A stretch of 64,000 nucleotides of DNA, taken from the NCBI GenBank assembly GCA_902790415.1, contig CADARU010000001.1, positions 50,071 to 114,070 on the forward strand, read 5' to 3'. Within the stretch, counting starts at the first letter, position 1. Each line of letters starts with the position of its first letter. Of this stretch, positions 6,283-57,190 are shown one piece after another. Position numbers and translations under genes: made by a program. The notes beneath the pieces are model-generated. The model had not been told where the DNA came from, did no database searches, and saw nothing but the letters and a program-made list of their open reading frames with translations. The DNA is from an uncultured Pseudomonadota bacterium (GTDB lineage Bacteria > Pseudomonadota > Alphaproteobacteria > Rs-D84).

Positions 6283-7008
6283 TTAATCTGCGCGGACAAC
6301 ACGACAAAACACCACGCCATAAACTGCCGCTGCGCCCGCACGTTTTAACACGCGCGACAGTTCGGTAAATGTTGCACCCGATGTCATAACATCATCAACC
6401 AACAAAATCTTTTTACCACGAATTTTTTCTGGTTTTATTACATTAAAAACACCGCGAATATTTTCAAACCTTTGCTTGTGCGTTTTATGTCCCATATTTT
6501 CACGATATTTGCGCCGCACAGAATCAAAATCTAGGTGTGCATTGTATACGGCGGAAATTGGCCGCGCCAACAAAGTCGCCTGGTTATAACCACGATGAAA
6601 CAAACGCCGATTTGCCAATGGCACCGGCATAACAATATCTGGTGAAATATCAACATCACGCAGCGCCCAAATCATTGCACGCGACATAAATGTTGCATAC
6701 TTGATAACCCCACCATGTTTAAACGGCAACATTGCCGACCGCGACATATCATCATAGCGACACGTCGCACGAACAACATCCAATTCCCCCAGACCAGATG
6801 CACACACCGGACACATTGCACCCGGCATATTTTCATAACCATCTGGGAACGGGTAACCACATACCGCACAATGTGGTCCGTCAATCCAATCAAAACAACC
6901 CCAGCAATCACCACATAATTCACCATGAATTGAAACCGGCGCACTGCACAATGGACAAGACGCCGGAAACAAAAAATCTATTAAACGATGAAAAATTTTT
7001 CCTACCAA
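6283..7008 (-). CDS. ComF/GntX-family phosphoribosyltransferase-domain protein
   Basis: N-terminal Cys-rich zinc-finger (CPLCSAPVSIHGELCGDCW...CAVCGYPF) plus a C-terminal PRTase motif KKILLVDDVMTSGATF. Confidence 0.7.
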   Translation of the reverse strand: MVGKIFHRLIDFLFPASCPLCSAPVSIHGELCGDCWGCFDWIDGPHCAVCGYPFPDGYENMPGAMCPVCASGLGELDVVRATCRYDDMSRSAMLPFKHGGVIKYATFMSRAMIWALRDVDISPDIVMPVPLANRRLFHRGYNQATLLARPISAVYNAHLDFDSVRRKYRENMGHKTHKQRFENIRGVFNVIKPEKIRGKKILLVDDVMTSGATFTELSRVLKRAGAAAVYGVVFCRVVRAD

Positions 7009-19883: not shown

Positions 19884-22800
19884 TTATTCCAAACTGGTCG
19901 TAAAGGAATCACCATAAGTACCGGCTTCATCCGGGCCAACATAGCAGACAATGTGGGAACCAACCTGGTCCAGCCATTCTTGTTGGGCCGCGGTCAATTC
20001 TTTATTATTCTTGGCTTTCAGTGCCTGGGTAACACCGATACCCGCAGCGACCGCACCACCCGTACCAACAATGCTAGATGCCAGCCATGTTCCAATCTTT
20101 GGTTTGTCACCATCATATCCTAATTTTTCTCTCACGGTATTAATGTGATTTTCAACATTAAAATTGCTGTCTACGGCGTTACACCCCTTGGCATTGCTGC
20201 AATGCACCGGTTTTTTCAATACAAACCCGTCAACAATGCCATCCGAAGTCAAAGTATAGCAGTCTTCATATTTATTATCTTCACCAGTTACTGCTTTCTT
20301 CGGTTCGCGTCCGCACAAGACATTACCAGCGTCTTTGAATCCCTCCCAATAATTAAGATTGGTTTCCAATTTTTTAACATCGCTGGATTTTGATACACCC
20401 GCTGTCGTATTCATCAAACCGCCCAAACCGGTTTTACGTTGCAACAGTTCGGTCAAACCATATCCGGCACCCGCCGCACCAATTGTTGATGCCGCAACCG
20501 CCCATTTTTGACCCGCGGTCAACTTGCCGTCTTCAGACAAACCTGTTTTCTTTGCGGCAACCGTTTTGCTAATTTTTTCTAATTCAGTTTGTGGTATCCA
20601 TGAACCGCATGTAATTGGATCACCAACCGCAAAATATGCCGTTGACCAATCTGTTCCATCGCGTAATTCTTTCTGGATATCCGGATCATCAGATTGAACC
20701 ATAACACGCACACGACAGAACGAACCATACAAATCGTTACTGGTTACAAATGCATTCGGTGTCAAACCATTGGTTGCATAGCTGTTCGGGACCTTGTTTG
20801 ATTTTAATTTCACCCATTGATATGTCGAACCCGTCATATCGTTACGTCCCATAATACCACCGTTGTTTTGTGCCAAGCACATTTGTTGTTCTTTGGTGAT
20901 TTTGGCATTATACTTTGCCTGGGCTTCTTTTTCGGCATCGGCCAAAACCTTTTGAAACAAGTTATCGGCCTGCATCTTGACCAGGTATTCTTGTTCTGGC
21001 ATGGTTACTTCAACCGAGAATAAGCACCCAAAATCGTTCATTGTATCACAAGGACCTGTTGCACCAATATCGGCAAACGACTTACACGTTGGTGTAGCAG
21101 ATGATTTATCAATACCACACTCACCTGTTGCAACGGTTTCAGCCTTGTATCCACCGCTGACCGCATCTGCCCATGTGCTGTGCGCCGCATCTGCACCACC
21201 CCATGTAACGGAATATTCATCACCTTTTGCAGCCTGTGATTTTGCAACCTCTACCCCAAAGTATTCTTCGCAGGCCTTGGCATTTACAACCGTTTCCGTA
21301 CACAAACCGGTTACAATAGTGAAATCCAAGACACCACCAACCTTGTTCATACTGTTGTTAAACGCGTTACTGGTATCGTCCGTACTGTATGTGGAACCCA
21401 TAACATCGGTTCTGCTGCGATAGCAATTTGTATAATCTGTTCCGCACATAGATTTAACGCAACTGGATACAGTATTGCGACATTGTTTCGCAAATTTATC
21501 CATTGCCGCATCATTATAAGATGCCGCCAATGTAGCATTTAACGAACCAACAACCGCCAACGGGTCTTTGAAACCGTCTTCGTATTGCGGGAACAAAATA
21601 CCAAATGCCGTCGAATCAGAATAACGATACGTTGAATCTTTGGATGCCGCATATTGACAATTCGCATCGGTGTTTACAACCGCTTCGCAAGCAGTTTTAA
21701 CTTCTTTGTATGCACGACCAGAATTAATACTGTTACCTTCGTTGTTACGAACCAATGCGTAACATACAGAACCAACACCGCCACCACAAGAACGCATCGC
21801 ACAAGATTTTATTGTTTCAACACACTTGTCTTTGGCCTTTTTATCAAACTTATCCGCCAACTGTTGAATTTTTGATGTCGTAACGGGATTGTTCATACGA
21901 GAATTATAGGCCTCGTTGAATATTTCACTGCGGTTATCTTCGTCTAGCAAATCCGCCGCCTTGGGCATTTGACCTTCGCCCAAGAATGTCGCATAACAAT
22001 ATTTGTTTGCACCAATTGTATCCAAACAAGCACCCTTGACATAACCTAAAACCTGGGACTTTTCAACAGTATCACCCGCCATCACACCAGAAATCAATGC
22101 AGATTTGTTAAGAGATGTCGCCGTTCCAGATGTTTGTGCATCCAATGCCTCGGCAATGTTGGCGGAAACTTTGTCAGAACCAACCATACATTTGAACGGG
22201 TTTTGTTCACACGCCGACATAAAGCATTGGTCAACAACCTTGTAACATGTGGAAACCGCGTTAACCGCCGCCAAATTCGCACCTTCGGTAATCATGATAC
22301 CAATACGACTGTCTGTGGCCGGTGTTGCCGCACGATTATCCGAACCGAATAATTCACGAACACCGTCCGCCTGGCAACGTGCCAAAGTGGATTCACAGAA
22401 AACCTTTTGCTTTTTAAATTCGGTATTATCGGTACACAATTCAAAGTCCGCGCCGCAAACACTTTCCTTCTTTAAGCATGATGTATATTTTTTAACACAA
22501 TTACTGGTATCCAAGCGGTTGCTAATCTCACTGGCCGCGATGAATTGACCCAAAATACTGCCCGCGGTGGGATAAATATATTCGCCATTGTTATCTTTGT
22601 TCGCCAAAGCGGTGATATTTGAATTACCAAACAGGGTGTTTACCGCCGCAGAAGAACACTGTAACAATGTGTTATTACAAATCGGTTTCTTGGCATAAAA
22701 CAATGTGTTGTTTGTACATTCTTCAAAATCAGAACCACATGCATCAGACCCGCGGATACATTCCGTATATGCGTCAACACATTCGTTTGCCGTCATCGTA

Positions 22801-23012
22801 GATTTATTTCCCGTCGTTGCGGTCCCCGTTGATGTCGTACCAATCGATGTGATTGTCGGCAAACGACGACTGCGTGCCGCAGCCATACCATTTGTCCCAG
22901 GGACAGTATAACTGACCCTTGATTCATTTGCCGGCGCAGTACGGGCCGCCCAAGACGCGTCAACCGCGCACAAAACCGCCATAAATCCAATGCAATTAGT
23001 CAAGAATTTCAT
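19884..23012 (-). CDS. Giant (1042 aa) cysteine-rich secreted protein with a C-terminal membrane anchor; hypothetical surface protein
   Basis: Signal peptide (MKFLTNCIGFMAVLCAVDASWA). Dozens of Cys, including a duplicated module C..YT.C......CG.DFE.CT.NT.F.K..C..TL..C....V..LFG at about aa 77-130 and 172-225. Two Gly-zipper hydrophobic segments near the C-terminus (WAVAASTIGAAGAGYGLTELLQRK and WLASSIVGTGGAVAAGIGVTQALKAK), then an acidic tail of about 40 aa. RBS AAAGGGGAAACGAGAATG and a TATAAT upstream. Confidence 0.65.
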   Translation of the reverse strand: MKFLTNCIGFMAVLCAVDASWAARTAPANESRVSYTVPGTNGMAAARSRRLPTITSIGTTSTGTATTGNKSTMTANECVDAYTECIRGSDACGSDFEECTNNTLFYAKKPICNNTLLQCSSAAVNTLFGNSNITALANKDNNGEYIYPTAGSILGQFIAASEISNRLDTSNCVKKYTSCLKKESVCGADFELCTDNTEFKKQKVFCESTLARCQADGVRELFGSDNRAATPATDSRIGIMITEGANLAAVNAVSTCYKVVDQCFMSACEQNPFKCMVGSDKVSANIAEALDAQTSGTATSLNKSALISGVMAGDTVEKSQVLGYVKGACLDTIGANKYCYATFLGEGQMPKAADLLDEDNRSEIFNEAYNSRMNNPVTTSKIQQLADKFDKKAKDKCVETIKSCAMRSCGGGVGSVCYALVRNNEGNSINSGRAYKEVKTACEAVVNTDANCQYAASKDSTYRYSDSTAFGILFPQYEDGFKDPLAVVGSLNATLAASYNDAAMDKFAKQCRNTVSSCVKSMCGTDYTNCYRSRTDVMGSTYSTDDTSNAFNNSMNKVGGVLDFTIVTGLCTETVVNAKACEEYFGVEVAKSQAAKGDEYSVTWGGADAAHSTWADAVSGGYKAETVATGECGIDKSSATPTCKSFADIGATGPCDTMNDFGCLFSVEVTMPEQEYLVKMQADNLFQKVLADAEKEAQAKYNAKITKEQQMCLAQNNGGIMGRNDMTGSTYQWVKLKSNKVPNSYATNGLTPNAFVTSNDLYGSFCRVRVMVQSDDPDIQKELRDGTDWSTAYFAVGDPITCGSWIPQTELEKISKTVAAKKTGLSEDGKLTAGQKWAVAASTIGAAGAGYGLTELLQRKTGLGGLMNTTAGVSKSSDVKKLETNLNYWEGFKDAGNVLCGREPKKAVTGEDNKYEDCYTLTSDGIVDGFVLKKPVHCSNAKGCNAVDSNFNVENHINTVREKLGYDGDKPKIGTWLASSIVGTGGAVAAGIGVTQALKAKNNKELTAAQQEWLDQVGSHIVCYVGPDEAGTYGDSFTTSLE

Positions 23013-24125: not shown

Positions 24126-24593
24126 CTATTTGTAATCGCGCCAATCTGGCCCACGCGTACACTTTGATAAATCTATCTTTAATTCACGTTCACCGGTAAC
24201 CGGGCATTTTAAAATACCGGTACTGACCGCCTGGTCTGCGTCACGCGTGGCGTTACGCCATGTAAAACTGATTTCTTGGGGGGCATGCACACACACCAAA
24301 CGCAACTTACCTTCGTCTTGTTTGTTTGGCCCAAGCCAGACGCGAACACTGTCCGCTTCACCATAACATGGGAAGGCATCCAAATAGTATAAAACCAATC
24401 CCTGTTTTACATCAGAATTCGTCCATGAAAACTTACCAGTAAATTGGCGCAACGGCAACCCAGTCAATGCCGCCCAATCGGTTGTTGTAGAAAAAATACT
24501 GACCCTCTTGATAACCGGCGGTGTTGGTGTCGGTGTATCGGCATACGCAACAAAAGGTGATACCATCAACATAAACGCCAAAATTTTCTTCAT
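24126..24593 (-). CDS. Hypothetical secreted protein (155 aa)
   Basis: Signal peptide (MKKILAFMLMVSPFVAYA), three Cys, no recognisable motif. Confidence 0.45.
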   Translation of the reverse strand: MKKILAFMLMVSPFVAYADTPTPTPPVIKRVSIFSTTTDWAALTGLPLRQFTGKFSWTNSDVKQGLVLYYLDAFPCYGEADSVRVWLGPNKQDEGKLRLVCVHAPQEISFTWRNATRDADQAVSTGILKCPVTGERELKIDLSKCTRGPDWRDYK

Positions 24594-25111
24594 CTTGTGC
24601 CCCCTGTGGTATTTTCCAATAATTCAACCGTAACCTTTTTTGCACCGGACATATCGCCCGACAAAGTATGCGAAAAACGAACCGATTGCCCCGCATCCAA
24701 CAATGTCGCAGATGGCATAAAACGTTGGCGCGAAATCGGTGCACCATTTGCATCATGTAAAACAACAATCAAATCCGGCAAACCATAAACATCTTCGGAA
24801 CGATTCGTAACCATACCATTTACAACAATTTTCGTTGTGCCATCATCCGCGGTAATCGTATCAACACGTTCAATGACCGCAACCAATGGTTTCTTGTTAG
24901 GATTATCACCGCGCGACGTAACAATAACCGCAACCGCAAAAACCGTTGCCGCCAACAATGCGCAAACCGCCGCAAAAAACATTAGCAACATACCACGACG
25001 TGATTGTGGCGCGCAATTCCACACGTTGCCGCACACCGCGCAACGAACCGGCCCAGTCGGTGCGGACGGCAAAGAATATTCTGTTTTACAAACATCACAT
25101 TTTACTTTCAT
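24590..25111 (-). CDS. Zinc-ribbon (MJ0042-type) plus DUF3426-like membrane protein
   Basis: The N-terminus has CDVC...C..CG (MKVKCDVCKTEYSLPSAPTGPVRCAVCGNVW). It has one TM helix (LLMFFAAVCALLAATVFAVAVIV) and a C-terminal beta-rich domain, an arrangement typical of zinc-ribbon/DUF3426 proteins. It overlaps the next gene by 4 nt, so both are in the pilin-like operon. Confidence 0.55.
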   Translation of the reverse strand: MKVKCDVCKTEYSLPSAPTGPVRCAVCGNVWNCAPQSRRGMLLMFFAAVCALLAATVFAVAVIVTSRGDNPNKKPLVAVIERVDTITADDGTTKIVVNGMVTNRSEDVYGLPDLIVVLHDANGAPISRQRFMPSATLLDAGQSVRFSHTLSGDMSGAKKVTVELLENTTGGTR

Positions 25112-25133: not shown

Positions 25134-26447
25134 TTATTGCAAATTCAACAAACGATATTTTTCCTGGACGGAATTTTGTATTTCGTGGATTGCGTTCATA
25201 TAATCAGACATTGTCGCGTTTTTATTTGCAACAACAGAACTGAATATACGCGTTGATGCCGAACCAGACACTGATTCACGACGTAAAACCCGACCCCCAA
25301 GGTCTGTTAATGTTGGTGAATTTATATCGTTCAAGTTCGCAATACCGTTTTTCACATCCCAAAAATAATTGGAATTTTCCGAATCTATGATTTTTTCACG
25401 AACCGTTAGGCGCGATGTCAAAGACCCCGCAAAACCAACCGTAACATACAGTGCGGTTATTCGCCCTTCGGTCATATCTAGTGTTTGATTTGCACGCAAA
25501 ATGGCAATGGAATTACTGTCGGTGGACAAACCACTTAACACCAAGTCATTAACCCACAGGTTATCTGTGGCCAGTTCCGAAAATTTACCGTATTCTGATA
25601 AATTGAATACATTTTTCGTAACGATATTTTTGGCATCACCACTAAGGGTGCCTGTTACGGTGGCAAGTCTGGTTTTATAATTTGAATCTAATATTGTTTG
25701 GTTATCAAATATTAAATCACGCGTATCTATATTGTTAACATTTAAAACTTCATCTATGCGCAGACCATTTGCATTTGCAAATGCAATGTTGGTAATATCG
25801 CGCATCCCCAGGTTTAACCCAGACAACATTGTCGCATCTGCCGCACTGTCAGACGGGACACGCCACAGATACAACGAATTATCACGATTCGCATTTGTTG
25901 TTTGAACAATACCAGAAGTCGCATCGATTCCCAAACTGGCCACATCTGTACGCCACGTACCAAACCCACCATAGGCACGCGCACCATCAACAAATCCAAT
26001 TTTGTCATCGCCCAAAGAAACTATTTCGCGCGTACGCATCGGTGTGATTTCCGAATCTGAATATACTATTACGCCTTGCAAGGCGGCCTGGTCGTTTTTA
26101 TCAACAGATTTTAAAATTCGTAACTGGTATTTATCAGACATTTCTTGGACAAAGGTTTCATCCAAGCCATAATCAGTTAAATCAGACAATTTTAACCTGA
26201 TTATATTTCGACCAATTGTTGTTAACATTTTATCTTTGTTATCGGCAATATAACCCTCTAACGCAGATTTAATCTTGTCCATTTGTCGTGTAACGCGTAT
26301 ATTTTCGGCACGCAAAATCGCACGTTGTTGATACTGATAAACAAAAGGCAACAATGTACCCGCCAATGCAATGGTTAATAAAAATTCCATCAACACTGTG
26401 CCGCGACAATTATTAGATTCAAAAAATTTTCGTTTTATTTTTTTCAT
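25134..26447 (-). CDS. Large (437 aa) protein with a TadE/prepilin-like N-terminus, paralog A
   Basis: The N-terminus MKKIKRKFFESNNCRG|TVLMEFLLTIALAGTLLPF has a positively charged leader, Gly, Glu at +5, a hydrophobic helix and Pro at about +19, as in TadE-like pseudopilins. It shares LSDL..YGL and L.L.GM(R/G)DI.N motifs with the two upstream paralogs. Confidence 0.55.
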   Translation of the reverse strand: MKKIKRKFFESNNCRGTVLMEFLLTIALAGTLLPFVYQYQQRAILRAENIRVTRQMDKIKSALEGYIADNKDKMLTTIGRNIIRLKLSDLTDYGLDETFVQEMSDKYQLRILKSVDKNDQAALQGVIVYSDSEITPMRTREIVSLGDDKIGFVDGARAYGGFGTWRTDVASLGIDATSGIVQTTNANRDNSLYLWRVPSDSAADATMLSGLNLGMRDITNIAFANANGLRIDEVLNVNNIDTRDLIFDNQTILDSNYKTRLATVTGTLSGDAKNIVTKNVFNLSEYGKFSELATDNLWVNDLVLSGLSTDSNSIAILRANQTLDMTEGRITALYVTVGFAGSLTSRLTVREKIIDSENSNYFWDVKNGIANLNDINSPTLTDLGGRVLRRESVSGSASTRIFSSVVANKNATMSDYMNAIHEIQNSVQEKYRLLNLQ

Positions 26448-27730
26448 TTTTCTACTTTGCCCGGTTGTATATCAATTATATGTAACTGAGGTGCGCTGGT
26501 TAAACCGGTGCGCCAATCGCTGTTAAACATATTTTTAAAATCTTCTTTGTGCGGCATTGATGGTATGGATGCGCGTGTTAATTTAAATTCCTTGAACGCA
26601 GGTGGCGTATAAGACGGAAATACCCACGAACCGAATCTGATTGGCGGATTGGTTGATACTAACAATTCGCCAGATACGGTCAAACCAAAATCTTGATAGA
26701 AAACAATTTCATCGGTATGAATATACGGTGTATAAACAGTCCCGGCATTTATCCCGGTAAAGGCACCTATTGTTTTTAACGAATCAGATTTTATAACCAA
26801 ATCCCGCCCAACATTTACGGATTTTCCAACTTTGACCCTATCGGCGGTTATACGACCATTTGTTGTAAAACCTGATGCATTTAATGTTCGCACCTGAATA
26901 TTTCTAAACCCACTGATATCACCCATCGCACGCAATATGTCAATGTTAACATCATCGCCACGTATTTCCGCGCCGCCAGAAAAATAAACGTTTTCAGAAT
27001 TTATTTCATTTGCATCTACAAACATTGCATTAACATTGGAAACCTTTAAAGATTTTCCAATTGCACCACCAACATTATAAATATCATTTCCACCCATGTT
27101 TAAATCGCGTTCCATCATATTTAACTTTTCTGTATCCGAAGAAGCGCGATGTAAAAATTTTTCACTGTCAACATCGGAAACATCGCGCGATATTTTATAA
27201 ACCAAACGCCCCGGTTCAAAATCCGGTGATGTAACCGCCCACGAATCGCCATACGCAACCCCATCCATACCAATAATCGCCGCATCGCCACCGATGTTTT
27301 TTGCAATCTGTGCCATGCGTTTTGTTGGCATATCAAAATCAAACATTAAATACACATCAACCACAGAACCATTTTTTATTGAATACTTGTCAATAAATCC
27401 GGCGGTTGCAGAACCAGAAAATGCCGCCAATTCTTCATCAGACAATTTGATTTGTGCCTGTTGTGGCCACAGGTCTTGATTCATACGAACAAAATTCAAC
27501 ACATCGTTTCGTAAACTAATTATATCATTTGCGATTGCCAAATTATGCATCGAATGTGTCGCATCGGTTATCATAGAATACGTAAAAGGTGCCGCAACCG
27601 CAACAATGACAAAAGCCAATAAAACCTCTACCAAACCGCCACCACGTTGGGCGCAAACAGATTCCTTGGTTGGACGAGAAAAAATTCTAAATACACCCAC
27701 TTTTTCCCTCCTTGATACAAATCGCCGCAT
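26444..27730 (-). CDS. Large (428 aa) protein with a TadE/prepilin-like N-terminus, paralog B
   Basis: ...CAQRG|GGLVEVLLAFVIVAVAAPF (Glu at +5, Pro after the helix). It shares motifs with paralogs A and C (KLSDEEL..., RDLNMGGNDIYNVGGAIG). It overlaps paralog A by 4 nt and paralog C by about 44 nt; the exact start is uncertain. Confidence 0.5.
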   Translation of the reverse strand: MRRFVSRREKVGVFRIFSRPTKESVCAQRGGGLVEVLLAFVIVAVAAPFTYSMITDATHSMHNLAIANDIISLRNDVLNFVRMNQDLWPQQAQIKLSDEELAAFSGSATAGFIDKYSIKNGSVVDVYLMFDFDMPTKRMAQIAKNIGGDAAIIGMDGVAYGDSWAVTSPDFEPGRLVYKISRDVSDVDSEKFLHRASSDTEKLNMMERDLNMGGNDIYNVGGAIGKSLKVSNVNAMFVDANEINSENVYFSGGAEIRGDDVNIDILRAMGDISGFRNIQVRTLNASGFTTNGRITADRVKVGKSVNVGRDLVIKSDSLKTIGAFTGINAGTVYTPYIHTDEIVFYQDFGLTVSGELLVSTNPPIRFGSWVFPSYTPPAFKEFKLTRASIPSMPHKEDFKNMFNSDWRTGLTSAPQLHIIDIQPGKVEK

Positions 27731-29060
27731 TTATTCTGGATTCTAGACGTTGCCAAAACACATACTGACATACAATATATTGCGCCAACGATTTTTGGTT
27801 ATATGTGTTTCCATATGATTCTATGATTGTTTTACACGTAACCGTATCAGATGAATCTTGGGTTGGGTATGCCAAAATAGAAAACGCATTATTATCAACC
27901 CCATCAATTAACACATCAGGCAGCATAGATGTCCCGGCCGGCCGCACATCTAAAATCGCCGCACCAGATGCACCACGTTGCAACCCACCAGATGTTTGGT
28001 CACGCAATGTAACATTGGACGAATATAAATACGCGGTGTCTATGCCACTGGATGTGTTATAAGATAAATCATCTTCGTCAATATAAACATCTTGACCACG
28101 CGTTAAATTTATAAAAGAACTGACATCCAAACGTTCGGTACTAAAACTAATACGACTGGTTATGACATTACCACGAACATCCCATTTTTCAGGACCATAA
28201 AATCCAGTTCGGCCTTCACTCATATTCAACGCATCAACCGATGCATCGACCGCCAACATATTTCCTGTATCACCAAATTTAGAAACCGTTTTAGCAAACA
28301 CATCATTGGTGTTTAATGTACCGCGCACCACCGACAACGATGATTTTCCAGATTCATTTTGAAATATCGTCTTGTCCGCATTTATTTGTAGAATTTTATT
28401 TCTGACGTTACGACCCGCCTCGGTTCCAAACACAGACAATTTGTCAAAAATACCGGTATCAAAATTCGCACGTCTGGCGAAAATATTTTCTGTGTTAACA
28501 AAATTAAACCCCCCCATATCTAAATCGGTCAGGAATTCCGCAACATCAGAATTACGTTCATTACGCCGAACAATATCAGAATAGTTTTCCGCCAACGGTA
28601 TACCTATTTCGATAACGTCTGAATCTGATGCCGGGTTATACGATGCATAAAAGCCAATTCGCCGCGCCAATTCTGCACGTTGCATTTTGGTTAATTCACC
28701 ACCCGCAACACGTACCAACGCGTAAACATCCGTTTCGTTTTTTATAATCACCACAGATATATCTTGGCCCAGTGGGGTTCGTGCAATAAATCCCAACGGT
28801 AACCCATACGGTTCCAACAAATCAGATAAATTATTCCCCGACACAACCGTTGTGTCATAAGGTAACGCATCAGAGTTTTCCAAGACATACAAACGTGCCG
28901 CATTTTTAACCGTTTCCAGTTGGTGTGTTGTGGCATACATTTGCGCCCCAATATCACGCGATGCCAACCGCCGGGTAAAGAAAGGCATGAAAGCAAAAAC
29001 CAATGTTAATGCCAATAACGCCTGTAATAAAAAATTTCCCCTCTCGTGATGCAAAAACAT
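27687..29060 (-). CDS. Large (457 aa) protein with a pilin-like hydrophobic N-terminus, paralog C
   Basis: MFLHHERG|NFLLQALLALTLVFAFMPFF (Gln at +5 instead of Glu). It shares LSDLLEPYGL and TDLDMGGFNFVNTENI motifs with paralogs A and B. First gene of the operon, with a divergent promoter region at 29061-29217. Confidence 0.5.
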   Translation of the reverse strand: MFLHHERGNFLLQALLALTLVFAFMPFFTRRLASRDIGAQMYATTHQLETVKNAARLYVLENSDALPYDTTVVSGNNLSDLLEPYGLPLGFIARTPLGQDISVVIIKNETDVYALVRVAGGELTKMQRAELARRIGFYASYNPASDSDVIEIGIPLAENYSDIVRRNERNSDVAEFLTDLDMGGFNFVNTENIFARRANFDTGIFDKLSVFGTEAGRNVRNKILQINADKTIFQNESGKSSLSVVRGTLNTNDVFAKTVSKFGDTGNMLAVDASVDALNMSEGRTGFYGPEKWDVRGNVITSRISFSTERLDVSSFINLTRGQDVYIDEDDLSYNTSSGIDTAYLYSSNVTLRDQTSGGLQRGASGAAILDVRPAGTSMLPDVLIDGVDNNAFSILAYPTQDSSDTVTCKTIIESYGNTYNQKSLAQYIVCQYVFWQRLESRINAAICIKEGKSGCI

Positions 29061-29619: not shown

Positions 29620-31152
29620 ATGGATAACAACTATACTGTTTTGGCGCGCAAATACCGCAGCCAAGATTTTGATTCCCTGATTGGCCAAGATGTTTTGGTA
29701 AAAACATTAACAACCGCAATCAACACCGGACGTATCGCGCATGCGTATATTTTTACCGGTATACGCGGTACCGGAAAAACCAGTACGGCACGTATTCTGG
29801 CCAAGGCATTAAATTGCACCGCATCTGATGGACCAACATCAAAACCATGCGGGGTATGTGAAAACTGTCGCGCTATCGCCGCCGGTCAACATATTGACGT
29901 TATGGAAATTGATGCCGCATCACACACCGGTGTCGAAAACATGCGTGAAATATTAGATGCATCGCAATACAGGCCAACAAACGGTCGATACAAGGTTTAT
30001 ATTATTGACGAAGTTCACATGTTATCTATTAGTGCATTTAACGCACTGTTAAAAACATTAGAAGAACCACCTGCACACGTGATATTTATTTTGGCCACAA
30101 CCGAAATTCGCAAGGTACCGGTTACAATCTTATCACGCTGTCAACGTTTTGATTTGGCACGCGTTCCGGTCGAAACATTAAAGAAACACTTTGCATGGAT
30201 TGCAACCCAGGAAAATGTAGAATTATCTGACGCGGCAAACGAATTATTGGCGCGTGCGGCCGATGGTTCTGTTCGCGATGGGTTATCATTACTGGACCAG
30301 GCGATTGCACAAACAGGTGGTCATGTTGACGAAGACGCGGTTATGAATATGTTAAAACGCGCTGATCGTGGGGTTGTTGTTGACCTTATGCAAACATTAT
30401 TGTCTGGCAACGTTGCAACCGCATTGGCCAAAGTGGACGAAATTTATAATAACGGAACCGATTTATCTATGCTGTTAACAGACATGATGGATTGGACACA
30501 CTGGGCAACGCGTATGCACCCAATTTTGCGCACCGGCGACAGTCAAAGTTGTCCATATACCGCCGAACAACGCGAACGTATCAAGGAAATAGATAAACAT
30601 GTTTCACTAAATTCTTTATCCCGTATATGGCAGGTTATGGTTGCCGCCGTACCTGAAATGCAGGCCGCCACAAATCAAAAACAATGTTTTGATATGTTGG
30701 TGATACGTTTGATGCATATTGCGGACATGCCATCGGTACCTGAAATGATGAAGCAACAAGAGGGCAACCGGCCAACACCAAAGGTGGACGCAACCGCCCC
30801 AGAAAAACCAAAAACTATCACGATAAATAGCGCGACAGATTTAGCCAATGCGTTACAGGATGCACGTGAAATGATACTCTATTCCTATTTTTCTAAGAAC
30901 ATAGAAATATCGGAAATCGCCAATAATAAAATATCTTATTTTGACAGGGGGGATGATGCAGATTTTCAATCACGTTTGGCGACATGGTTAAATACAAAAA
31001 CAGGCGCAACGTGGATGCTGAATAAAATTGAAGAATCACCACATTCGCAAACCGTTGTTGAACAAAATATCGCAGAAATAGAAGCAGACCCAATGGTTGC
31101 GGATGCGATGTCTTTATTCCAAGGTGCCGAGATTGTCGGTTCAACCAAATAA
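29620..31152 (+). CDS. dnaX: DNA polymerase III subunit tau/gamma
   Basis: MDNNYTVLARKYRSQDFDSLIGQDVLVKTLTTAINTGRIAHAYIFTGIRGTGKTSTARILAKALNC has the AAA+ clamp-loader Walker A. It also has the C-x-x-C zinc module (CGVCENC) and the SRC motif. Confidence 0.9.
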   Translation: MDNNYTVLARKYRSQDFDSLIGQDVLVKTLTTAINTGRIAHAYIFTGIRGTGKTSTARILAKALNCTASDGPTSKPCGVCENCRAIAAGQHIDVMEIDAASHTGVENMREILDASQYRPTNGRYKVYIIDEVHMLSISAFNALLKTLEEPPAHVIFILATTEIRKVPVTILSRCQRFDLARVPVETLKKHFAWIATQENVELSDAANELLARAADGSVRDGLSLLDQAIAQTGGHVDEDAVMNMLKRADRGVVVDLMQTLLSGNVATALAKVDEIYNNGTDLSMLLTDMMDWTHWATRMHPILRTGDSQSCPYTAEQRERIKEIDKHVSLNSLSRIWQVMVAAVPEMQAATNQKQCFDMLVIRLMHIADMPSVPEMMKQQEGNRPTPKVDATAPEKPKTITINSATDLANALQDAREMILYSYFSKNIEISEIANNKISYFDRGDDADFQSRLATWLNTKTGATWMLNKIEESPHSQTVVEQNIAEIEADPMVADAMSLFQGAEIVGSTK

Positions 31153-31169
31153 AACACATGGGGCGAGAG

Positions 31170-31625
31170 ATGAAAACAGAATCCGGACGTTCTTTGATTG
31201 AAATTATTGGTGTGTTGGCCATTACCGCGGTTATGACGGCGGCGACGATTGCGATGTATAACACCATTCGTAAAAATCAAACGCATACAATCGCATCGGC
31301 CGAACTGCGTGAAGTGGCAAAAAACATAAAATTATTATTTGATATGCGTGGCGATTATACCGGGGTTTCGGTGGACTGGCTGGTCAAGGCCGGCGCATTA
31401 AAAAACGACAAGGCCCCCTTGGGAGAATCTTGGAGTATAGAGCCAACATCAGATGCAAGTGGTTTTGTTATAAACCTGCGTGGGTTGTCGCACAGTAATT
31501 GCGATTTCTTGGCGGTATCGGCCCCCAGTTGGGCATCATCCATTATCGTAAACGGTCAAGAAAACGAATCTTCGCCGATTTGTTTTTCAGGTAACACGAA
31601 CAATATTACATTCATTGCACAATAG
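31170..31625 (+). CDS. Type IV pilin / pseudopilin-like protein (about 151 aa)
   Basis: MKTESG|RSLIEIIGVLAITAVMTAATIAMY is a class III signal peptide-like N-terminus with Glu at +5. A C-terminal Cys pair (NCDFLAV...SSPICF) resembles a pilin D-region. RBS GAGAG 3 nt upstream. It lies 18 nt after dnaX. Confidence 0.55.
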   Translation: MKTESGRSLIEIIGVLAITAVMTAATIAMYNTIRKNQTHTIASAELREVAKNIKLLFDMRGDYTGVSVDWLVKAGALKNDKAPLGESWSIEPTSDASGFVINLRGLSHSNCDFLAVSAPSWASSIIVNGQENESSPICFSGNTNNITFIAQ

Positions 31626-31631
31626 GCAAGC

Positions 31632-32306
31632 ATGAAAAAACTGAACGCATTTTTTATTGGTTGCACAATGACACTGGCGGCATGTATGCAATACACCAGC
31701 CCCAGTCGCAATACATGGCCGCAATATTTACATGGGGCCAGTTTTATGGAAATGACTGAATCTGCACGTGTCGCAAAAAAGCCTATTTTCCAAGGCGATG
31801 GCGGCCGTCTGGTTTCCCAGGTTATAAAACCTGTATCACAATACGGCGATAAAAACGCGAACGATTCGGCAATGTATTTGCAATATATGTCCGAATTGGA
31901 ATTCAAATTATATGATGCACTGCGCAAACCGGGAACATCTGTTCAACGCGCAGGGACGGACGTTGTTGTATTGTTGGTGCGTGATGCGATAATGGAACTG
32001 GATGCGCCGGATATTTCCGCAGATGGTGATAACAATTTGGGTATAATTGCAAAAATATTAAAGAACTATGATGCAACATTTATTGAAATTGCCGGATATA
32101 CAGATTCTATGCGTGACACACATGCCGCCCAGGCATTATCATTAGATATGGCGCAACGTGTAGCGGTGTATTTAGCCAAACATGGTATAAAAACATCGCG
32201 TATGTTTATTGTTGGGCGCGGCGCGGCACGTCCTATTGCCGGCCAAGACGAGATGGGGCGTTTAACCAATCGGCGCGTGGAAATAAGAATTGCACCGGTG
32301 CGATAA
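31632..32306 (+). CDS. OmpA-family lipoprotein (Pal-like peptidoglycan-associated)
   Basis: Lipobox (TLAAC) and a C-terminal OmpA_C motif ...TFIEIAGYTDS...AQALSLDMAQRVAVYLAKHGI...NRRVEIRI. Confidence 0.7.
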   Translation: MKKLNAFFIGCTMTLAACMQYTSPSRNTWPQYLHGASFMEMTESARVAKKPIFQGDGGRLVSQVIKPVSQYGDKNANDSAMYLQYMSELEFKLYDALRKPGTSVQRAGTDVVVLLVRDAIMELDAPDISADGDNNLGIIAKILKNYDATFIEIAGYTDSMRDTHAAQALSLDMAQRVAVYLAKHGIKTSRMFIVGRGAARPIAGQDEMGRLTNRRVEIRIAPVR

Positions 32307-32383: not shown

Positions 32384-33049
32384 ATGTCTGAAAAAAACAA
32401 TAGCAACACACCTGTGGTTGTAAAAAAATACTCTAAAATTGGCATTATTGCGGCAATCGTCATCGCGGTGGCGGCAATTGGTGCATTTATCATCGTTCGT
32501 GCAAATAGACCTGTTGGCATAAACGACGCAATCAGTGAAGTTTCATCTGATGCATTAACGGGTGCCGATTTACGCATCGCGGTTGTTCGTATGGATGCAA
32601 TTCAAAACCAAGCCAAGGTTTTGCAAGATTTGCGCAAACAACGCGAAAATTATGAAGAAAAATTACGTAAAGATTTAACTTCTCAACAAAAAGCATTGGA
32701 AAAAGAAAAAGCAGAAATCGAAAAATCACAAGATGTTTTGTCTCGTGATGCACTGCAACGTCGTGTTATGGACTATCAATCACGTGTTACAAAATTACAA
32801 CGCGATTTGACAGAACGCGCACAGAGCATTGAAAGTTCCTTCCAAAAAGCATTAAACACAATCCAAGAAAAACATTTGGACCCGATAATTGATGGTGTTA
32901 TCGCGAAAAAGAATTTGTCTTTGGTTGTTGATGGGCGTTTCGCACGCACCGGTACAAACACCGAAAAATTGGATATCACCACAGATATTGTGTCTGCGTT
33001 GGACAAAAGGGTATCCAGTTTCAAGATGGATAAACCAAAAGGTTTTTAA
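32384..33049 (+). CDS. skp: Periplasmic chaperone Skp (OmpH family)
   Basis: TM/signal-anchor, then a long coiled-coil (ALEKEKAEIEKSQDVLSRDALQRRVMDYQSRVTKLQRDL), ending with ...LVVDGRF. It sits immediately upstream of lpxD-fabZ, the conserved skp-lpxD-fabZ order. Confidence 0.7.
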   Translation: MSEKNNSNTPVVVKKYSKIGIIAAIVIAVAAIGAFIIVRANRPVGINDAISEVSSDALTGADLRIAVVRMDAIQNQAKVLQDLRKQRENYEEKLRKDLTSQQKALEKEKAEIEKSQDVLSRDALQRRVMDYQSRVTKLQRDLTERAQSIESSFQKALNTIQEKHLDPIIDGVIAKKNLSLVVDGRFARTGTNTEKLDITTDIVSALDKRVSSFKMDKPKGF

Positions 33050-33080
33050 GTGGTTTGTGTAAAAGATTCGTGTTTAGTTT

Positions 33081-33104
33081 GGGGGCTTTGCCCCCGTTTT
33101 ATTT
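33081..33104 (+). terminator. Terminator after skp
   Basis: gggggctttgcccccg hairpin followed by ttttatt. Confidence 0.5.
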
Positions 33105-35250: not shown

Positions 35251-35868
35251 CTACCATGTTGGTGCATGGTCGCCTTCTTTGACGATTGGTTTTTCATCTT
35301 CCCATACGGTCAATCCTGTTTTAACATCGGTCAATGCCAATTGCAGGTAATATTCTACACGCGTATCAACAGATGAAAACCATCCAGATTGCAATTTCAA
35401 ATTGCGCTGTATCATTTTTCCAGACATCGACATATTTGGTGCAATCAAAGTACCCTGAGACACAATAGTTGATGCATCGTATTCACTGTTTCCACGCGTG
35501 GCGCGAACGTTATGCGTTGTTTCGTCTTGGGCAGATTTACCATTTTGAAACGAACTGGAAACCTTGGCACGACCGGAATTTACCAATGTTTTACGAATCT
35601 TTTGTGTTAAAATATCGGTATCAAAACGTTGCATAGTGTCGTTTTTGATTTCACCCATCGCAATAACAGGATTCTTAATTTTTGCAAAAGCACCACTGTT
35701 AATCATAGATTTTGTCATTTCTTCGGCGGTTGCGGTCCAATCACGATATTCCAATTCCATAACATTTTGCATCGCCGCAACTTCTTTTTCGTTATTCAGG
35801 TCAACAACACGTGTTTCACCGCATCCAATCAATGCCGCACATAATGCAACCGGAAATAATTTTTTCAT
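35251..35868 (-). CDS. LpoB-like lipoprotein (penicillin-binding protein activator family)
   Basis: Lipobox (ALIGCG). YRDWTATAEEMTKSMINSGAF...NDTMQRFDTDILTQKIRKTLVNSGRAKVSS and ...EYYLQLALTDVKTGLTVWEDEK are collinear with the conserved blocks of the E. coli LpoB C-terminal domain. Confidence 0.55.
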   Translation of the reverse strand: MKKLFPVALCAALIGCGETRVVDLNNEKEVAAMQNVMELEYRDWTATAEEMTKSMINSGAFAKIKNPVIAMGEIKNDTMQRFDTDILTQKIRKTLVNSGRAKVSSSFQNGKSAQDETTHNVRATRGNSEYDASTIVSQGTLIAPNMSMSGKMIQRNLKLQSGWFSSVDTRVEYYLQLALTDVKTGLTVWEDEKPIVKEGDHAPTW

Positions 35869-35886
35869 ATTTTCCCCCTTTCGTTT

Positions 35887-37131
35887 TTATTTTAACTTTA
35901 TTACCTTGGTATCTTCGTTATTTGGTCCGACACGAACATAAACCAAATAATTAGACCCATCATAAGGTGTATTCATTTTCATAACCAGATTACCACTGCC
36001 ACGCAATTCAATCAAGCCACTTTTATTATTTTCAACCCGCAACACCGATATTGTTTTGGGCAGGGTTGGCCACGTACGAACCTCGGCCGCAGTGGTTACT
36101 TCTGAATAAATCGTTGACAAGATTCCCATCAAAGGTGCGGATGCACTGCGTGAATTATACATGGATGTTTGTAATGCGGTACGCCCTGTTGCGGCGGCCA
36201 ACGCACGCAAAGAATCGTTCGTTCTGTATTCTTTGTATTCGGTCATAAACATTGCATCAACATCAGCCAATTTTTGTGCGCCCGATATATTTGTAAAATT
36301 ATTCGTAAACACCGGTTCTGACATCGCAATAGTAACAATAGACATACCATCACCCATAAACACAGGCACCGACACGCGCCGTTCATGCAGTTTTGGCGCA
36401 AAACCATCTTCGATAAAAACCCAAACTGTATTTTTCGGTGTAATATGTTTTTCCGCCAATGACAAATCGGTGGCAACAAAGGTGTTGTTTGGACTCATCC
36501 CATTTGCGCGTGCCAAATATGTTTTTGCATCACTAAAATCACCGTTGTTTAGGAAATAAATCCCCGACAAATACATTAATGCCGGATTCATAATATCTGT
36601 ATATGCTGCCCACATAGAATTTTCAGATTCTAACTTTTTGTTCAATTCTGCATTTTCAATAATTTTGCTTTGGTTTGATTCAATCGTATTTTTATATGCC
36701 AACGACATATCTTGCTGGCGGCCATAAGATTGATTAATAATTACGCGCGCATCGTTATAACGCCCGGTTGCCAATGCCGCCCATAACTGATAATAAGACA
36801 CAAATAACGCGTCCATCATGTACGGTTTATATTCGTTAACAGATGCACCAAATACCAAAGATGCGGCTTCACGTGAAAAACTGCCCCCGGTGGTATCTAT
36901 GTTACGCCGATTAAATTCTTCATAGGCCGCATCTGCGCCACTGTAATCATCATTATGGAACAATGTATCGGCCGTAATTAACAAGTCCAAATTATTTTGT
37001 GATGAAAAATTTGTATCCGTGGTGGCGGCTGTCATATAATTTTCCCGCACAGAATCAAGACGCGCCTCGGTCGTGGCGGCACACGCAGATAACAAAACAC
37101 ATACAGTTAAAAATTTTATAGAACGAAACAT
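35887..37131 (-). CDS. Hypothetical lipoprotein (414 aa), co-transcribed with the T4CP and LpoB-like genes
   Basis: Lipobox (VLLSACAA). No recognisable catalytic motif. The start lies 3 nt after the stop of the VirD4-like gene. Confidence 0.5.
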   Translation of the reverse strand: MFRSIKFLTVCVLLSACAATTEARLDSVRENYMTAATTDTNFSSQNNLDLLITADTLFHNDDYSGADAAYEEFNRRNIDTTGGSFSREAASLVFGASVNEYKPYMMDALFVSYYQLWAALATGRYNDARVIINQSYGRQQDMSLAYKNTIESNQSKIIENAELNKKLESENSMWAAYTDIMNPALMYLSGIYFLNNGDFSDAKTYLARANGMSPNNTFVATDLSLAEKHITPKNTVWVFIEDGFAPKLHERRVSVPVFMGDGMSIVTIAMSEPVFTNNFTNISGAQKLADVDAMFMTEYKEYRTNDSLRALAAATGRTALQTSMYNSRSASAPLMGILSTIYSEVTTAAEVRTWPTLPKTISVLRVENNKSGLIELRGSGNLVMKMNTPYDGSNYLVYVRVGPNNEDTKVIKLK

Positions 37132-37133
37132 AA

Positions 37134-39398
37134 CTATTGCTTTGCCACCGGTGTCAATTCACGCAATTCTTTTGCCTGGGGGTCAAAGAATTTCGGCGTA
37201 CCTGCATATTCCAATATTGCATGATGGCTTGGTACCAAAAATTCCGGCAACGGGGAACAGCGACCCATTTTTACATAACTAGACATACGTTCATCATTAA
37301 ACGACATCCTGATGTCGGCCTTAATCGGGCGATGATACCAACCTTCGTAAAGAATAATTGCTTCGGATGTCTTGCTTTTTGGACCAACTGTTTTTAATTG
37401 CATAATATCAAATTCGGAAAACAACGGTTCGTCTTTCTTTTCTTCCTCTTCTTTTTCTTTGCCATCCGGCCCTTTTACTTTTTTCTTTTTGATTGTCGTT
37501 TTCTTTGGCATCATTTCCGCGAAACGTTTCGCCGATTCAATATCATTTTGACGCAAAATAATCTTGGCCGCCGTTGTTGATATAATGGTAGATGCCGCAT
37601 CATTACCGTATTTTTCAGAAATCTGGTGTAAATCCTGACCAATCAACAGATAAGATATCTTCTGTCCACGTCCAACGTCTGGCCCCTGGATAACAGCGGT
37701 CATTTTTTGCATCTTGGGCATTTCGTCTAACAAGAACAATACCGGATACGGTCCCATTTTTTGTCCGTTACGTCCAACCTTGTCTGGTGGATTTGCCAAC
37801 AAAAAGTTTGACATTGTTTCAACAAACATTGATGTAATTGGATTCAAGGCCTTGGCATCAACCATGTTAATAGACAAATATACCGTTGCCGGCTTTATTT
37901 TGCCATCGGTCGGGTCAACAATTCCACGCATATCGGAAAAATGAAAGTCAGAATGACTGGTCCGGTTACGTACGGCGGCATTTCTGAATATGGCCAGACC
38001 CGTCAAAATCGTTGATAAAATAGAGCCACGTTCGGTTGACGGGGTGTTGGCTAACTTGGTTAATTCTGCAACCGCACGATTTGAATAAGAAAAGGAACGT
38101 GCTTCGTTAACCGCCGATTCCAACCAGTCCTTCATCGGGTCGGCCATCATAACAGATTGGTCCCCTTGGCGTTGACGTTCCGCCAATTCATTGGCAACGG
38201 CAATTTGCGCTTCGGTAATCCAATCCAACATCAAAGAATATGATGCCTCTTTGCCCAACCATGCCTGGGGAATATTTGCCCAGGAACCAACATGAACGTA
38301 ATTCATGGCATTTAATTGCTTGTTTTTAATAAGCGCCATCGCCGCAAACGCATTTGGGTCATTTACCATTGAAAAATAGTAATCCGATAAAATCGCCGCA
38401 TCTTCATCATCAAATTGCCCCGATTGCAACCGGGAATAGAAATAATCATCGGCCTTGGCACGTTCAATTTTTGAAATAATAAATTGGACAAAACCCGCCA
38501 AACCGGCACGCCCCGCCTGGGTCCAGTGGGGGTCGGCACTGCTGCCTTCGGCATCAGGAACCAAAACATCGCACATATAATCAACGTACAATTCGCGTTG
38601 TTCCGGACTGGCCGGGACATGTTCGGGCGAAAGTGGATTCCACGATGGATAATAAATACCCTTGTCTGGTTCATCTTGGCCACCCCAATCCATAATAAAC
38701 ACCGGTCCAACATGCTTTGAACGATATGCACTGGATTTTGTATCCAATTCAGGTTTGGGGTCGTTAATAATCATCGAAACATCGGTGCATTCAAATATAG
38801 TCGGCAAACACACACCTTCGGTTTTACCGGTTCCCGGAGGTGCCAAACACAAAACAGATGTTGTTTTAGGTAACTTTAAAACCTTGTTCTTGAAATAGCC
38901 CAACACAATGATAATACCATCAAACAGACCCATGGCCTTGACATCTTTTTCGTTTGCGGTACGTCCAGATTTTTTATCATAAATATCTTTACCGTTGGGG
39001 TCAAATTCGTCCATTAACGATTTATCAGTTAACAGGAAATAAGCAATCATCGGGAACAACGGTACCATACAGGCAAAATCAGGATGCATTACACAACGAA
39101 TAAACCAATTCGGCACCCCCGCCAAGACCGAAAAACCCAATGTTGAAAACATTTGTGATAAATACACCTTGGTCCAAACCCATGTTGCGGGCGACCAGCC
39201 ATACCGCCACAAATGTTCAAAAACAAACGAAATTCCAAATGCCAATGCACAAACAATCCAAACCGTTGTCAACCAACGTACCCGCCAAAACGCCTGTGCA
39301 ATCGGTATTTGTAAATGTTCAGTATAAGCACTGGACTTAAAAATATTAAGCCCTTTACTGTCCTTGCCTGCGGATAAAATCTTGAACTTGTCTGGCAT
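37134..39398 (-). CDS. Type IV secretion coupling protein (VirD4/TraG/DotL family ATPase)
   Basis: N-terminal TM helices. Walker A in TraG-like context ...SVLCLAPPGTGKTEGVCLPTIFECTDVSMIINDPKPEL (compare TraG ...APTRSGKGVGLVIPNLL...D.KGE). Walker B VLFLLDEMPKM. Lys/Glu-rich C-terminal tract (KKKKVKGPDGKEKEEEEKKDE). Confidence 0.6.
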   Translation of the reverse strand: MPDKFKILSAGKDSKGLNIFKSSAYTEHLQIPIAQAFWRVRWLTTVWIVCALAFGISFVFEHLWRYGWSPATWVWTKVYLSQMFSTLGFSVLAGVPNWFIRCVMHPDFACMVPLFPMIAYFLLTDKSLMDEFDPNGKDIYDKKSGRTANEKDVKAMGLFDGIIIVLGYFKNKVLKLPKTTSVLCLAPPGTGKTEGVCLPTIFECTDVSMIINDPKPELDTKSSAYRSKHVGPVFIMDWGGQDEPDKGIYYPSWNPLSPEHVPASPEQRELYVDYMCDVLVPDAEGSSADPHWTQAGRAGLAGFVQFIISKIERAKADDYFYSRLQSGQFDDEDAAILSDYYFSMVNDPNAFAAMALIKNKQLNAMNYVHVGSWANIPQAWLGKEASYSLMLDWITEAQIAVANELAERQRQGDQSVMMADPMKDWLESAVNEARSFSYSNRAVAELTKLANTPSTERGSILSTILTGLAIFRNAAVRNRTSHSDFHFSDMRGIVDPTDGKIKPATVYLSINMVDAKALNPITSMFVETMSNFLLANPPDKVGRNGQKMGPYPVLFLLDEMPKMQKMTAVIQGPDVGRGQKISYLLIGQDLHQISEKYGNDAASTIISTTAAKIILRQNDIESAKRFAEMMPKKTTIKKKKVKGPDGKEKEEEEKKDEPLFSEFDIMQLKTVGPKSKTSEAIILYEGWYHRPIKADIRMSFNDERMSSYVKMGRCSPLPEFLVPSHHAILEYAGTPKFFDPQAKELRELTPVAKQ

Positions 39399-57107: not shown

Positions 57108-57116
57108 AACAAAAAA

Positions 57117-57190
57117 TGGAGGCCTAGGTCGGAATCGAACCGGCTTACAAGGATTTGCAGTCCTCTGCATAACCATTCTGCCACCAGGCC
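57117..57190 (-). tRNA. tRNA-Cys (anticodon GCA)
   Basis: The minus strand reads GGCCTGGTGGCAGAATGGTTATGCAGAGGACTGCAAATCCTTGTAAGCCGGTTCGATTCCGACCTAGGCCTCCA, a cloverleaf with anticodon loop CTGCAAA. Confidence 0.85.

Follow-up and report, generated by a model that had tools for sequence, protein, structure and literature searches.

A probable type IVb-class pilin gene with arginine at position +1 downstream of dnaX in Candidatus Enterousia

The stretch of DNA analysed here (the window) comprises 64,000 nucleotides (nt) of an uncultured alphaproteobacterium of the order Rs-D84 (GenBank assembly GCA_902790415.1, contig CADARU010000001.1, positions 50,071 to 114,070 of the forward strand). It raises the question whether the small open reading frame (ORF) that directly follows dnaX encodes a type IV pilin, and how the arginine predicted to start its mature product is to be understood. 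On the combined evidence of sequence, predicted fold and gene context, we consider it likely that the gene product is a small pilin from which Candidatus Enterousia builds a type IVb-class pilus, probably as the major subunit. The original prediction had proposed a type IV pilin-like gene at this place, and this is supported by the predicted fold, by profile homology to Bundlin and PilS, by conservation of the motif and by a matching assembly machine in the genus.

The gene is an intact ORF on the plus strand (31170-31625) with an ATG at 31170, a stop codon ending at 31625 and a product of 151 amino acids (aa); an alternative in-frame ATG upstream at 31158 would add four residues (155 aa). The gap between the dnaX stop codon (31152) and the ATG is 17 nt, and 6 nt separate the pilin stop codon from the following ompA-like gene. 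A protein of about 151 aa directly after dnaX had thus been called correctly, with the spacing given as 18 nt being one too many. The N-terminus reads MKTESG↓RSLIEIIGVLAITAVMTAATIAMY (the arrow marks the predicted cleavage site), with the leader MKTESG encoded at 31170-31187, Arg at +1 and Glu at +5. Removal of the leader is predicted to yield a mature pilin of 145 aa whose first residue is Arg (RSLIE...); the processed N-terminus is predicted as RSLIEI..., the alternative form being MKTESGRSLIEI...

In class III signal peptides, a short hydrophilic leader with Gly or Ala as its last residue precedes a mainly hydrophobic segment of about 20-25 residues, in which Glu often occupies +5 (PMC10191384). 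The leader MKTESG is short and hydrophilic and ends in Gly6, which is invariant in 121 sequences; the hydrophobic stretch SLIEIIGVLAITAVMTAATIAMY comes after Arg+1, and Glu11, the residue at +5, is invariant as well. The PROSITE prepilin pattern prescribes a hydrophobic residue at +1 (Phe, Met, Leu, Ile, Val or Tyr). It fits the pilin everywhere but at this position, which is occupied by the invariant Arg7, and matches only when +1 is freed. The sub-threshold score of the Pfam N_methyl model (12.7 bits, cut-off 21.2) is explained by this departure. When the entire window was scanned in six frames for G-x4-[EQ] with a hydrophobic stretch after it, exactly four ORFs were returned, namely the pilin gene and three large ORFs upstream of dnaX. 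These four hits, the invariant residues and a gene order kept in 80 of 80 loci (see below) show that the pilin motif is not a chance occurrence. The N-terminus is predicted to be a class III (prepilin) signal peptide, with Arg at +1 as the sole departure from the canonical pattern.

The close homologues (n=198) are nearly all 151-152 aa long, and the named ones all come from uncultured gut or rumen Alphaproteobacteria; a scan with one genome per GTDB species identified their source as Candidatus Enterousia, order Rs-D84. Six residues, G6, R7, L9, E11, C111 and C138, are invariant among 121 aligned homologues, and the 6-residue leader is present in 116 of 120. The Glu at +5, the hydrophobic helix and the C-terminal pair of Cys residues (111 and 138) had all been recognised beforehand and are now seen to be family features. 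The mean majority-residue frequency is highest in the N-terminal helix (0.83) and lowest in the segment from Cys111 to Cys138 (0.58). A conserved helix combined with a variable C-terminal half is the usual pattern of a surface-exposed major pilin and suggests such a role here.

To follow the family further, an exhaustive search of 1.84 billion representatives with a hidden Markov model (HMM) was performed (E<=1e-3), which gave 893 representative clusters. The remote ones typically start with ...SG↓RSM(I/V)EMLGVLAI(I/V)GVLS. When 85 remote clusters were tested against Pfam (E<=0.01), PilS was matched by 48, Bundlin by 43 and N_methyl by 34, and one remote member, P0306, reached 75 bits for Bundlin and 69 bits for PilS, above the Pfam thresholds. 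The window pilin alone gave no Pfam Bundlin or PilS match at E<1. In hhalign, the alignment of the Enterousia family with the remote set spans the entire length and takes in both Cys residues (99.9% probability, E 6e-32). Among the best 150 of the 893 clusters, Arg occupies +1 in 132 of the 140 representatives with a recognisable motif, and it is therefore a clade hallmark and not an oddity of the window gene. Of 30 representatives looked up among the 893, the organism-named members were all Alphaproteobacteria or 'Rickettsiales' metagenome-assembled genomes (MAGs). The remark that an Arg after the Gly is unusual holds for pilins generally; within what appears to be a large alphaproteobacterial type IVb pilin clade, Arg+1 is the rule. 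No paper was found that mentions the strings GRSMIEM or GRSLIEI, and literature searches on Bundlin with Rickettsiales and on type IVb with Alphaproteobacteria gave nothing relevant by title or abstract.

In a 'Rickettsiales bacterium' MAG, the pilin homologue P0257 (MKNESG↓RTLMETLGVLAI..., L082 10001-10456) lies within a T7-like prophage, placed between a terminase-like gene and a head-tail connector gene, with capsid and lysozyme genes close by. The marine-type alphaproteobacterial MAG GCA_024222595.1 (L081, L085, L086; locus tags GY804_...) carries at least six dispersed Arg+1 Bundlin-like pilin paralogues scattered among housekeeping genes, some as tandem pairs. The remote homologues in other MAGs are likewise dispersed amid housekeeping genes, with no machinery adjoining. 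A mobile-element origin of the window gene was considered and rejected, as the pilin had no tblastn match in plasmids or phages and no fold match in BFVD and the base composition around the gene is uniform.

We then asked which subclass the protein belongs to. An AlphaFold2 model built on the family alignment (predicted local distance difference test, pLDDT, 83.8) consists of a helix of 50 residues (9-58) and a four-strand sheet, which is the lollipop fold, in which an antiparallel sheet packs against a long N-terminal helix. A Foldseek search of the PDB with this model gave 14 matches at E below 3e-3, all of them type IVb pilins. The best was CofA from the CFA/III filament (9iuf, E 4.7e-6), and TcpA was matched in the TCP filament and in crystals (8uhf); the template modelling (TM) scores for CofA and TcpA, normalised to the query, ranged from 0.67 to 0.75, the upper value being that of TcpA. 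Matches beyond the 14 were non-significant, with PilS (1q5f) first at E 0.66, and no pseudopilin was among the matches. A PDB profile search with the family profile gave weak matches to TcpA over residues 8-118 and to CofA over residues 59-117. Homology and fold of the globular domain, as judged from Foldseek (CofA, TcpA, PilS) and from hhalign, are therefore those of a type IVb pilin. Cys111 and Cys138 enclose the variable region and correspond in the alignment to the Cys pair of the Bundlin/PilS-positive clade; being invariant, they could form the usual disulfide. A long leader is the traditional mark of type IVb pilins, acknowledged to be non-discriminatory (PMC10191384), and the six residues found here are of type IVa length. 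Despite this leader, the pilin is to be classed as type IVb. The condition under which the original prediction would have failed, a plain signal anchor on a protein of a non-pilin periplasmic family, does not apply, since fold and profile say pilin.

The gene is embedded in the following plus-strand unit:
29620 to 31152, plus strand: dnaX, encoding the DNA polymerase III tau/gamma subunit (Pfam DNA_pol3_delta2, gamma3 and DnaX lid)
31170 to 31625, plus strand: predicted prepilin gene, 151 aa (AlphaFold2 pLDDT 83.8, Foldseek, PDB profile, hhalign 99.9%)
31632 to 32306, plus strand: OmpA-family peptidoglycan-binding lipoprotein with the lipobox ...TLAAC (Pfam OmpA, 52.5 bits)
32384 to 33049, plus strand: Skp/OmpH periplasmic chaperone gene (Pfam OmpH, 55.9 bits)

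The NCBIfam matches of the OmpA-like lipoprotein were all below the equivalog cut-offs. The order dnaX-pilin-OmpA lipoprotein-Skp(OmpH) was found in 80 of 80 Enterousia loci and also in a distant 'Rickettsiales bacterium' MAG (L083), in which the pilin and ompA genes overlap by 4 nt. The unit extends in a housekeeping context, dnaX-x-ompA-skp(-lpxD-fabZ), in the window as in most genomes. The four genes look co-transcribed, with dnaX as the first large gene of the unit, because the plus strand between the dnaX start and lpxD has a single terminator-like hairpin, which follows skp and lies at 33080-33096. A promoter scan gave nothing above shuffled expectation. The slot after dnaX had been described as that of ybaB and recR, which is true of E. 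coli; with E. coli YbaB and RecR as queries, no match was obtained in the window or in any related Enterousia locus.

The minus-strand genes at 35251-39398 of the window include one for a VirD4/TraG-type coupling protein (754 aa), 5.5 kb from the pilin gene. In many genomes it is accompanied by genes for an LpoB-like lipoprotein and a lipoprotein of 414 aa. In another locus (L091 1-1873), a VirB4 gene lies 8 kb upstream of pilO, so that both pilus loci are near type IV secretion genes.

The three large ORFs returned by the motif scan belong to a minus-strand block of five genes that is divergent from dnaX, tightly packed and mostly overlapping, with rluD after it:
27687 to 29060, minus strand: large pilin-like protein, 457 aa, ...ERG↓NFLLQALLAL, Gln+5, candidate tip-capping minor pilin
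26444 to 27730, minus strand: large pilin-like protein, 428 aa, ...QRG↓GGLVEVLLAF, Glu+5, candidate minor pilin
25134 to 26447, minus strand: large pilin-like protein, 437 aa, ...CRG↓TVLMEFLLTIAL, Glu+5, candidate minor pilin or adhesin
24590 to 25111, minus strand: protein with a zinc ribbon, one transmembrane segment and a DUF3426/FxLYD domain (Pfam, NCBIfam)
24126 to 24593, minus strand: secreted protein of 155 aa without a family match, part of the same conserved block

The zinc-ribbon/DUF3426 gene lies 22 nt downstream of the three pilin-like genes and is overlapped by the 155-aa gene by 4 nt. The block moves as a unit and is found upstream of dnaX or, in some genomes, after skp. The N-terminal motif is kept in the orthologues of all three large proteins: G↓NFL(L/V)Q in those of the 457-aa protein, RG↓(G/A/S/T)xxxE in those of the 428-aa protein and (R/Q/C/G)G↓(T/S/G)(V/M)LxE in those of the 437-aa protein. 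The 428-aa (E 7e-7) and 457-aa (E 3e-4) proteins are distant paralogues of the 437-aa protein, for which 601 homologues were found, one of them named PilE by JGI, and the 428-aa protein gave weak N-terminal N_methyl and XpsI matches. For the 437-aa protein, AlphaFold2 predicted a long helix at the N-terminus and a sheet within residues 13-185 (pLDDT 70-83), the remainder being poorly modelled. In size, the three were compared with the large minor pilins TcpB, CofB and PilV; the PilV annotated in a Bosea cluster has 508 aa. N-terminal motif, motif conservation, size class and linkage make the three proteins candidate minor pilins. The original prediction had labelled this triplet TadE-like and the neighbourhood rich in pilin-like genes. 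The enrichment is real, with the only four motif-bearing ORFs of the window lying here; the TadE label had to be given up, as no TadE (PF07811) match was obtained at E<1 and the proteins have 428-457 aa and type IV pilin-style N-termini.

To find an assembly machine, the window and the related loci were screened by BLAST with E. coli reference proteins. In locus L073, this revealed an ATPase resembling GspE, encoded 4 kb downstream of the pilin gene. The order in this locus is pilin-ompA-skp, followed by pilO, pilP, the ATPase and the platform gene. PilO (Pfam PAP_PilO, 28.0 bits, cut-off 26.7) and PilP (TIGR03021, 35.5 bits, cut-off 34.65) exceed their thresholds; the ATPase (543 aa; T2SSE, 210 bits) has a C-terminal tetracysteine (paired-CxxC) motif seen by eye, and the platform is a single two-domain T2SSF protein of 356 aa. 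In locus L099, which belongs to a second genome (a Candidatus Enterousia-series assembly), the minus strand carries the three large pilin-like genes and the plus strand those for DUF4167, dnaX, pilin, ompA, skp, pilO, pilP, ATPase and platform. The nine genes shared between this locus and the window are all orthologous at 46-73% identity, whereas counterparts of the four assembly genes are lacking in the window. In at least two Enterousia genomes (L099 1-12701, JAZQVS010000011.1; L073 8924-15583), all recognised pilus genes are contiguous over about 12.7 kb. In most genomes, the assembly genes are located elsewhere, as a pilOPQR block after lpxK-lpxC, a gene for a 138-aa lipoprotein and one for a beta-barrel outer-membrane protein of about 320 aa.

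The machine appears to be widespread in the genus, because the 120 ATPase clusters (90% identity) listed among 5053 matches are 85-100% identical to the query; the assembly ATPase is, by this comparison, under strong purifying selection across the genus. Its nearest plasmid relatives are all of type IVb (Bosea PilO2 cluster, 36-37%; IncI-type, 34%; BfpD, 33%). The Bosea cluster has the order TcpQ-secretin-PilO2-PilP-ATPase-platform-second ATPase-...-PilV, and the Enterousia proteins matched their Bosea counterparts with E-values of 7e-12 (PilO), 1e-96 (ATPase) and 7e-71 (platform). Judged from these similarities, the genus encodes a type IVb PilO-PilP-extension ATPase-platform module. The search for a prepilin peptidase and a secretin employed motif regular expressions, E. 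coli GspO, GspD, HofB, HofC, GspE and GspF, and the Bosea secretin and TcpQ; in the window and all loci this set matched the ATPase, the platform and PilO only. Neither the window nor the related loci (about 1.5 Mb) yielded a GxGDxK-type polytopic protein, and no PilT-like ATPase or PilV homologue was found there either. The 138-aa lipoprotein and the beta-barrel protein of about 320 aa (ending in ...LGLRFEF), encoded directly upstream of pilO (L091 6437-7969, and likewise in L092-L097), have no family match and occupy the secretin position of R64/Bosea-type clusters. They may represent an alternative outer-membrane component or merely be neighbours.

Several results speak against a type IVb pilus. 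The window pilin by itself reaches no Pfam or NCBIfam pilin threshold and gives only sub-threshold N-terminal matches. We know of no characterised precedent for a charged Arg at the start of the segment that enters the membrane and the filament core. The model of a large pilin-like protein was poor and had no match in Foldseek, so that the fold of the large proteins is not established. None of the plausible window ORFs of at least 110 aa is an assembly gene, and the set of this genome is inferred from the genus. No prepilin peptidase (A24) or secretin was detected in the window, in the roughly 1.5 Mb of related loci or beside the assembly genes. Finally, in a published survey of Rs-D84 genomes (PMC12306168), another lineage is the only one for which type IV pili are mentioned.

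Could the gene instead encode a pseudopilus subunit, part of a short endopilus in the periplasm that resembles type II secretion, pushes proteins out or acts as a piston, and forms no external adhesive pilus? NCBI and JGI name some of the homologues 'type II secretion system GspH family protein' or PulG, neither a retraction ATPase nor a secretin was seen beside the Enterousia assembly genes, and the type IVb systems TCP and CFA/III also secrete a protein (PMC10191384). The similarity to GspH and GspG, however, is confined to the N-terminal helix and far below the cut-off (GspH on the window pilin, 11.7 bits against 80, residues 9-41 only), and the fold search yielded type IVb pilins and no pseudopilin. 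The machine, moreover, belongs to the PilO/PilP (R64/ICE) type, homologues of GspC, GspL and GspM were not detected, and the variable C-terminal half of the pilin suggests surface exposure. We regard a pseudopilus as unlikely.

Somewhat less probable still is a pilin-derived inner-membrane protein that does not polymerise and serves envelope maintenance together with the OmpA-like lipoprotein and Skp. Such a function would explain the fixed place of the gene in a housekeeping operon and not in a pilus operon, both in the window and in most genomes; in addition, Arg+1 might block normal processing, in keeping with the failure to find a peptidase. On the other hand, Gly-1 and Glu+5 are invariant in the pilin family, and across deep divergence they are also conserved in the sampled orthologues of the 437- and 428-aa proteins, as is Gln+5 in those of the 457-aa protein. 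A motif conserved in this way is the signature of selection for processing and assembly. The purifying selection on the ATPase and the assembly genes directly after the same block in two genomes argue in the same direction. A plain signal-anchored periplasmic protein of a non-pilin family, for which one could cite the lack of any curated pilin model at threshold on the window protein, is contradicted by fold, profile homology, motif conservation and genomic association and is very improbable.

If the gene encodes a pilus subunit, as we favour, the prepilin would insert into the inner membrane, and a prepilin peptidase would cut off MKTESG after Gly6. The machine of ATPase, platform, PilO and PilP would extract the 145-aa pilin and polymerise it, with assembly starting from a tip complex that the three large paralogues would form, comparable to the CofB tip trimer (PMC10191384). 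In the filament core, Arg1 may pair with Glu5 and thereby add to or replace the salt bridge between the N-terminal amine and Glu5. The 457-aa protein with its Gln+5 might be located at the very tip, by analogy with GspK and PilK, which are without Glu5. The translationally coupled OmpA-like lipoprotein could tie the apparatus to peptidoglycan, and the pilus would allow a non-motile, metabolically dependent gut bacterium to attach to partner cells or host surfaces, a use proposed from lifestyle. A bolder proposal is that of a distinct 'Arg1' subclass of type IV filaments in Enterousia and a broad range of uncultured Alphaproteobacteria, characterised by Arg1-Glu5 pairing in the core, a non-canonical or highly divergent peptidase, no classical secretin, a heterotrimeric tip and a role as attachment organelle. 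This combination is speculative, and we hold it to be doubtful as a whole.

Candidatus Enterousia, an uncultured lineage prevalent in gut and rumen, has genomes of 0.75-1 Mb, without flagella, respiration or obvious nutrient transporters, and is suspected to depend on partner cells (PMC12306168). The present analysis adds pilus genes to a lineage for which the Rs-D84 survey had mentioned none. A type IVb-like pilus conserved throughout the genus would be a concrete candidate for attachment to partners or the host, and the pilin, labelled 'hypothetical' by standard pipelines, is a candidate surface antigen for enrichment or imaging. The Arg+1 clade of about 900 clusters, missed as a whole by motif-based pilin finders, offers a natural test of what prepilin peptidases and filament cores tolerate. 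In Streptococcus sanguinis, leader length and gene clustering fail to separate type IVa from type IVb (PMC10191384), and Enterousia appears to be a further such case.

Besides the pilus-related genes, the window contains a complete ribosomal RNA (rRNA) operon on the minus strand at 14283-19227 (16S, spacer tRNA at 17530-17603, 23S, 5S), which accounts for an ORF-free stretch. A tRNA gene at 57120-57190 overlaps the 5′ end of the longest ORF called for recF (56046-57176, minus strand; site 56046-57190), and the true recF start is probably further downstream. Large secreted proteins without a Pfam match are encoded at 19884-23012 (minus strand), 7002-8393 (minus strand) and 1829-3007 (plus strand), and include one of 1042 aa whose N-terminal region is rich in Cys; such proteins agree with a published remark on the many uncharacterised envelope proteins encoded by Enterousia-type genomes.

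How does the system compare with known ones? The GspG and GspH pseudopilins share with the pilin the class III signal peptide and the N-terminal helix, and the similarity goes no further. TadE and TadF of the Tad (type IVc) systems resemble the triplet in their pilin-like N-termini, in the small cluster and in the alphaproteobacterial host. TadE and TadF have roughly 150-200 aa, and the triplet proteins, with 428-457 aa, are much larger. The Enterousia ATPase aligns over about 400 residues with the assembly ATPases GspE and PilB and has its closest plasmid relatives in type IVb systems, and the platform is a single 356-aa two-domain protein in place of TadB plus TadC.

TcpA of Vibrio cholerae and CofA of enterotoxigenic E. 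coli (CFA/III) are the best structural matches to the pilin (E down to 5e-6), and the weak profile match includes part of the globular domain, as far as the first conserved Cys (residue 111). Identity is 15-20%, however, and TcpA and CofA are about 40-50 residues longer, start with Met at +1 and are encoded in single operons; their leaders are long. In TCP and CFA/III, one large minor pilin (TcpB, CofB) forms a trimer at the tip (PMC10191384). This is a single homotrimer-forming protein, whereas Enterousia has three distinct large paralogues that are comparable in kind.

The nearest relatives are Bundlin (BfpA, PF05307) and PilS (R64 and the Salmonella Typhi thin pilus, PF08805), to which the Enterousia pilin is homologous at the profile level over the full length, including both Cys residues. 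As in R64/ICE-type systems, the machine has PilO and PilP and the same order PilO-PilP-ATPase-platform. Bundlin and PilS are larger than the mature Enterousia pilin of only 145 aa and have Leu, Met or another hydrophobic residue at +1 in place of Arg. The traditional type IVb leader is long (PMC10191384), and the Enterousia leader has six residues. Also in contrast to Bundlin and PilS, the pilin gene belongs to a dnaX-ompA-skp unit that is usually far from the assembly genes, and no peptidase, secretin, PilT-like ATPase or lytic transglycosylase was seen near the Enterousia genes. The departures are the invariant Arg+1 in a large undescribed clade, the 6-residue leader and the 145-aa mature pilin on a type IVb fold, together with a pilin gene fixed between dnaX and an OmpA lipoprotein gene, three large paralogues, and dispersed assembly genes without a visible secretin or peptidase. 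With these departures, the predicted system is recognisably a type IVb filament and not categorically new.

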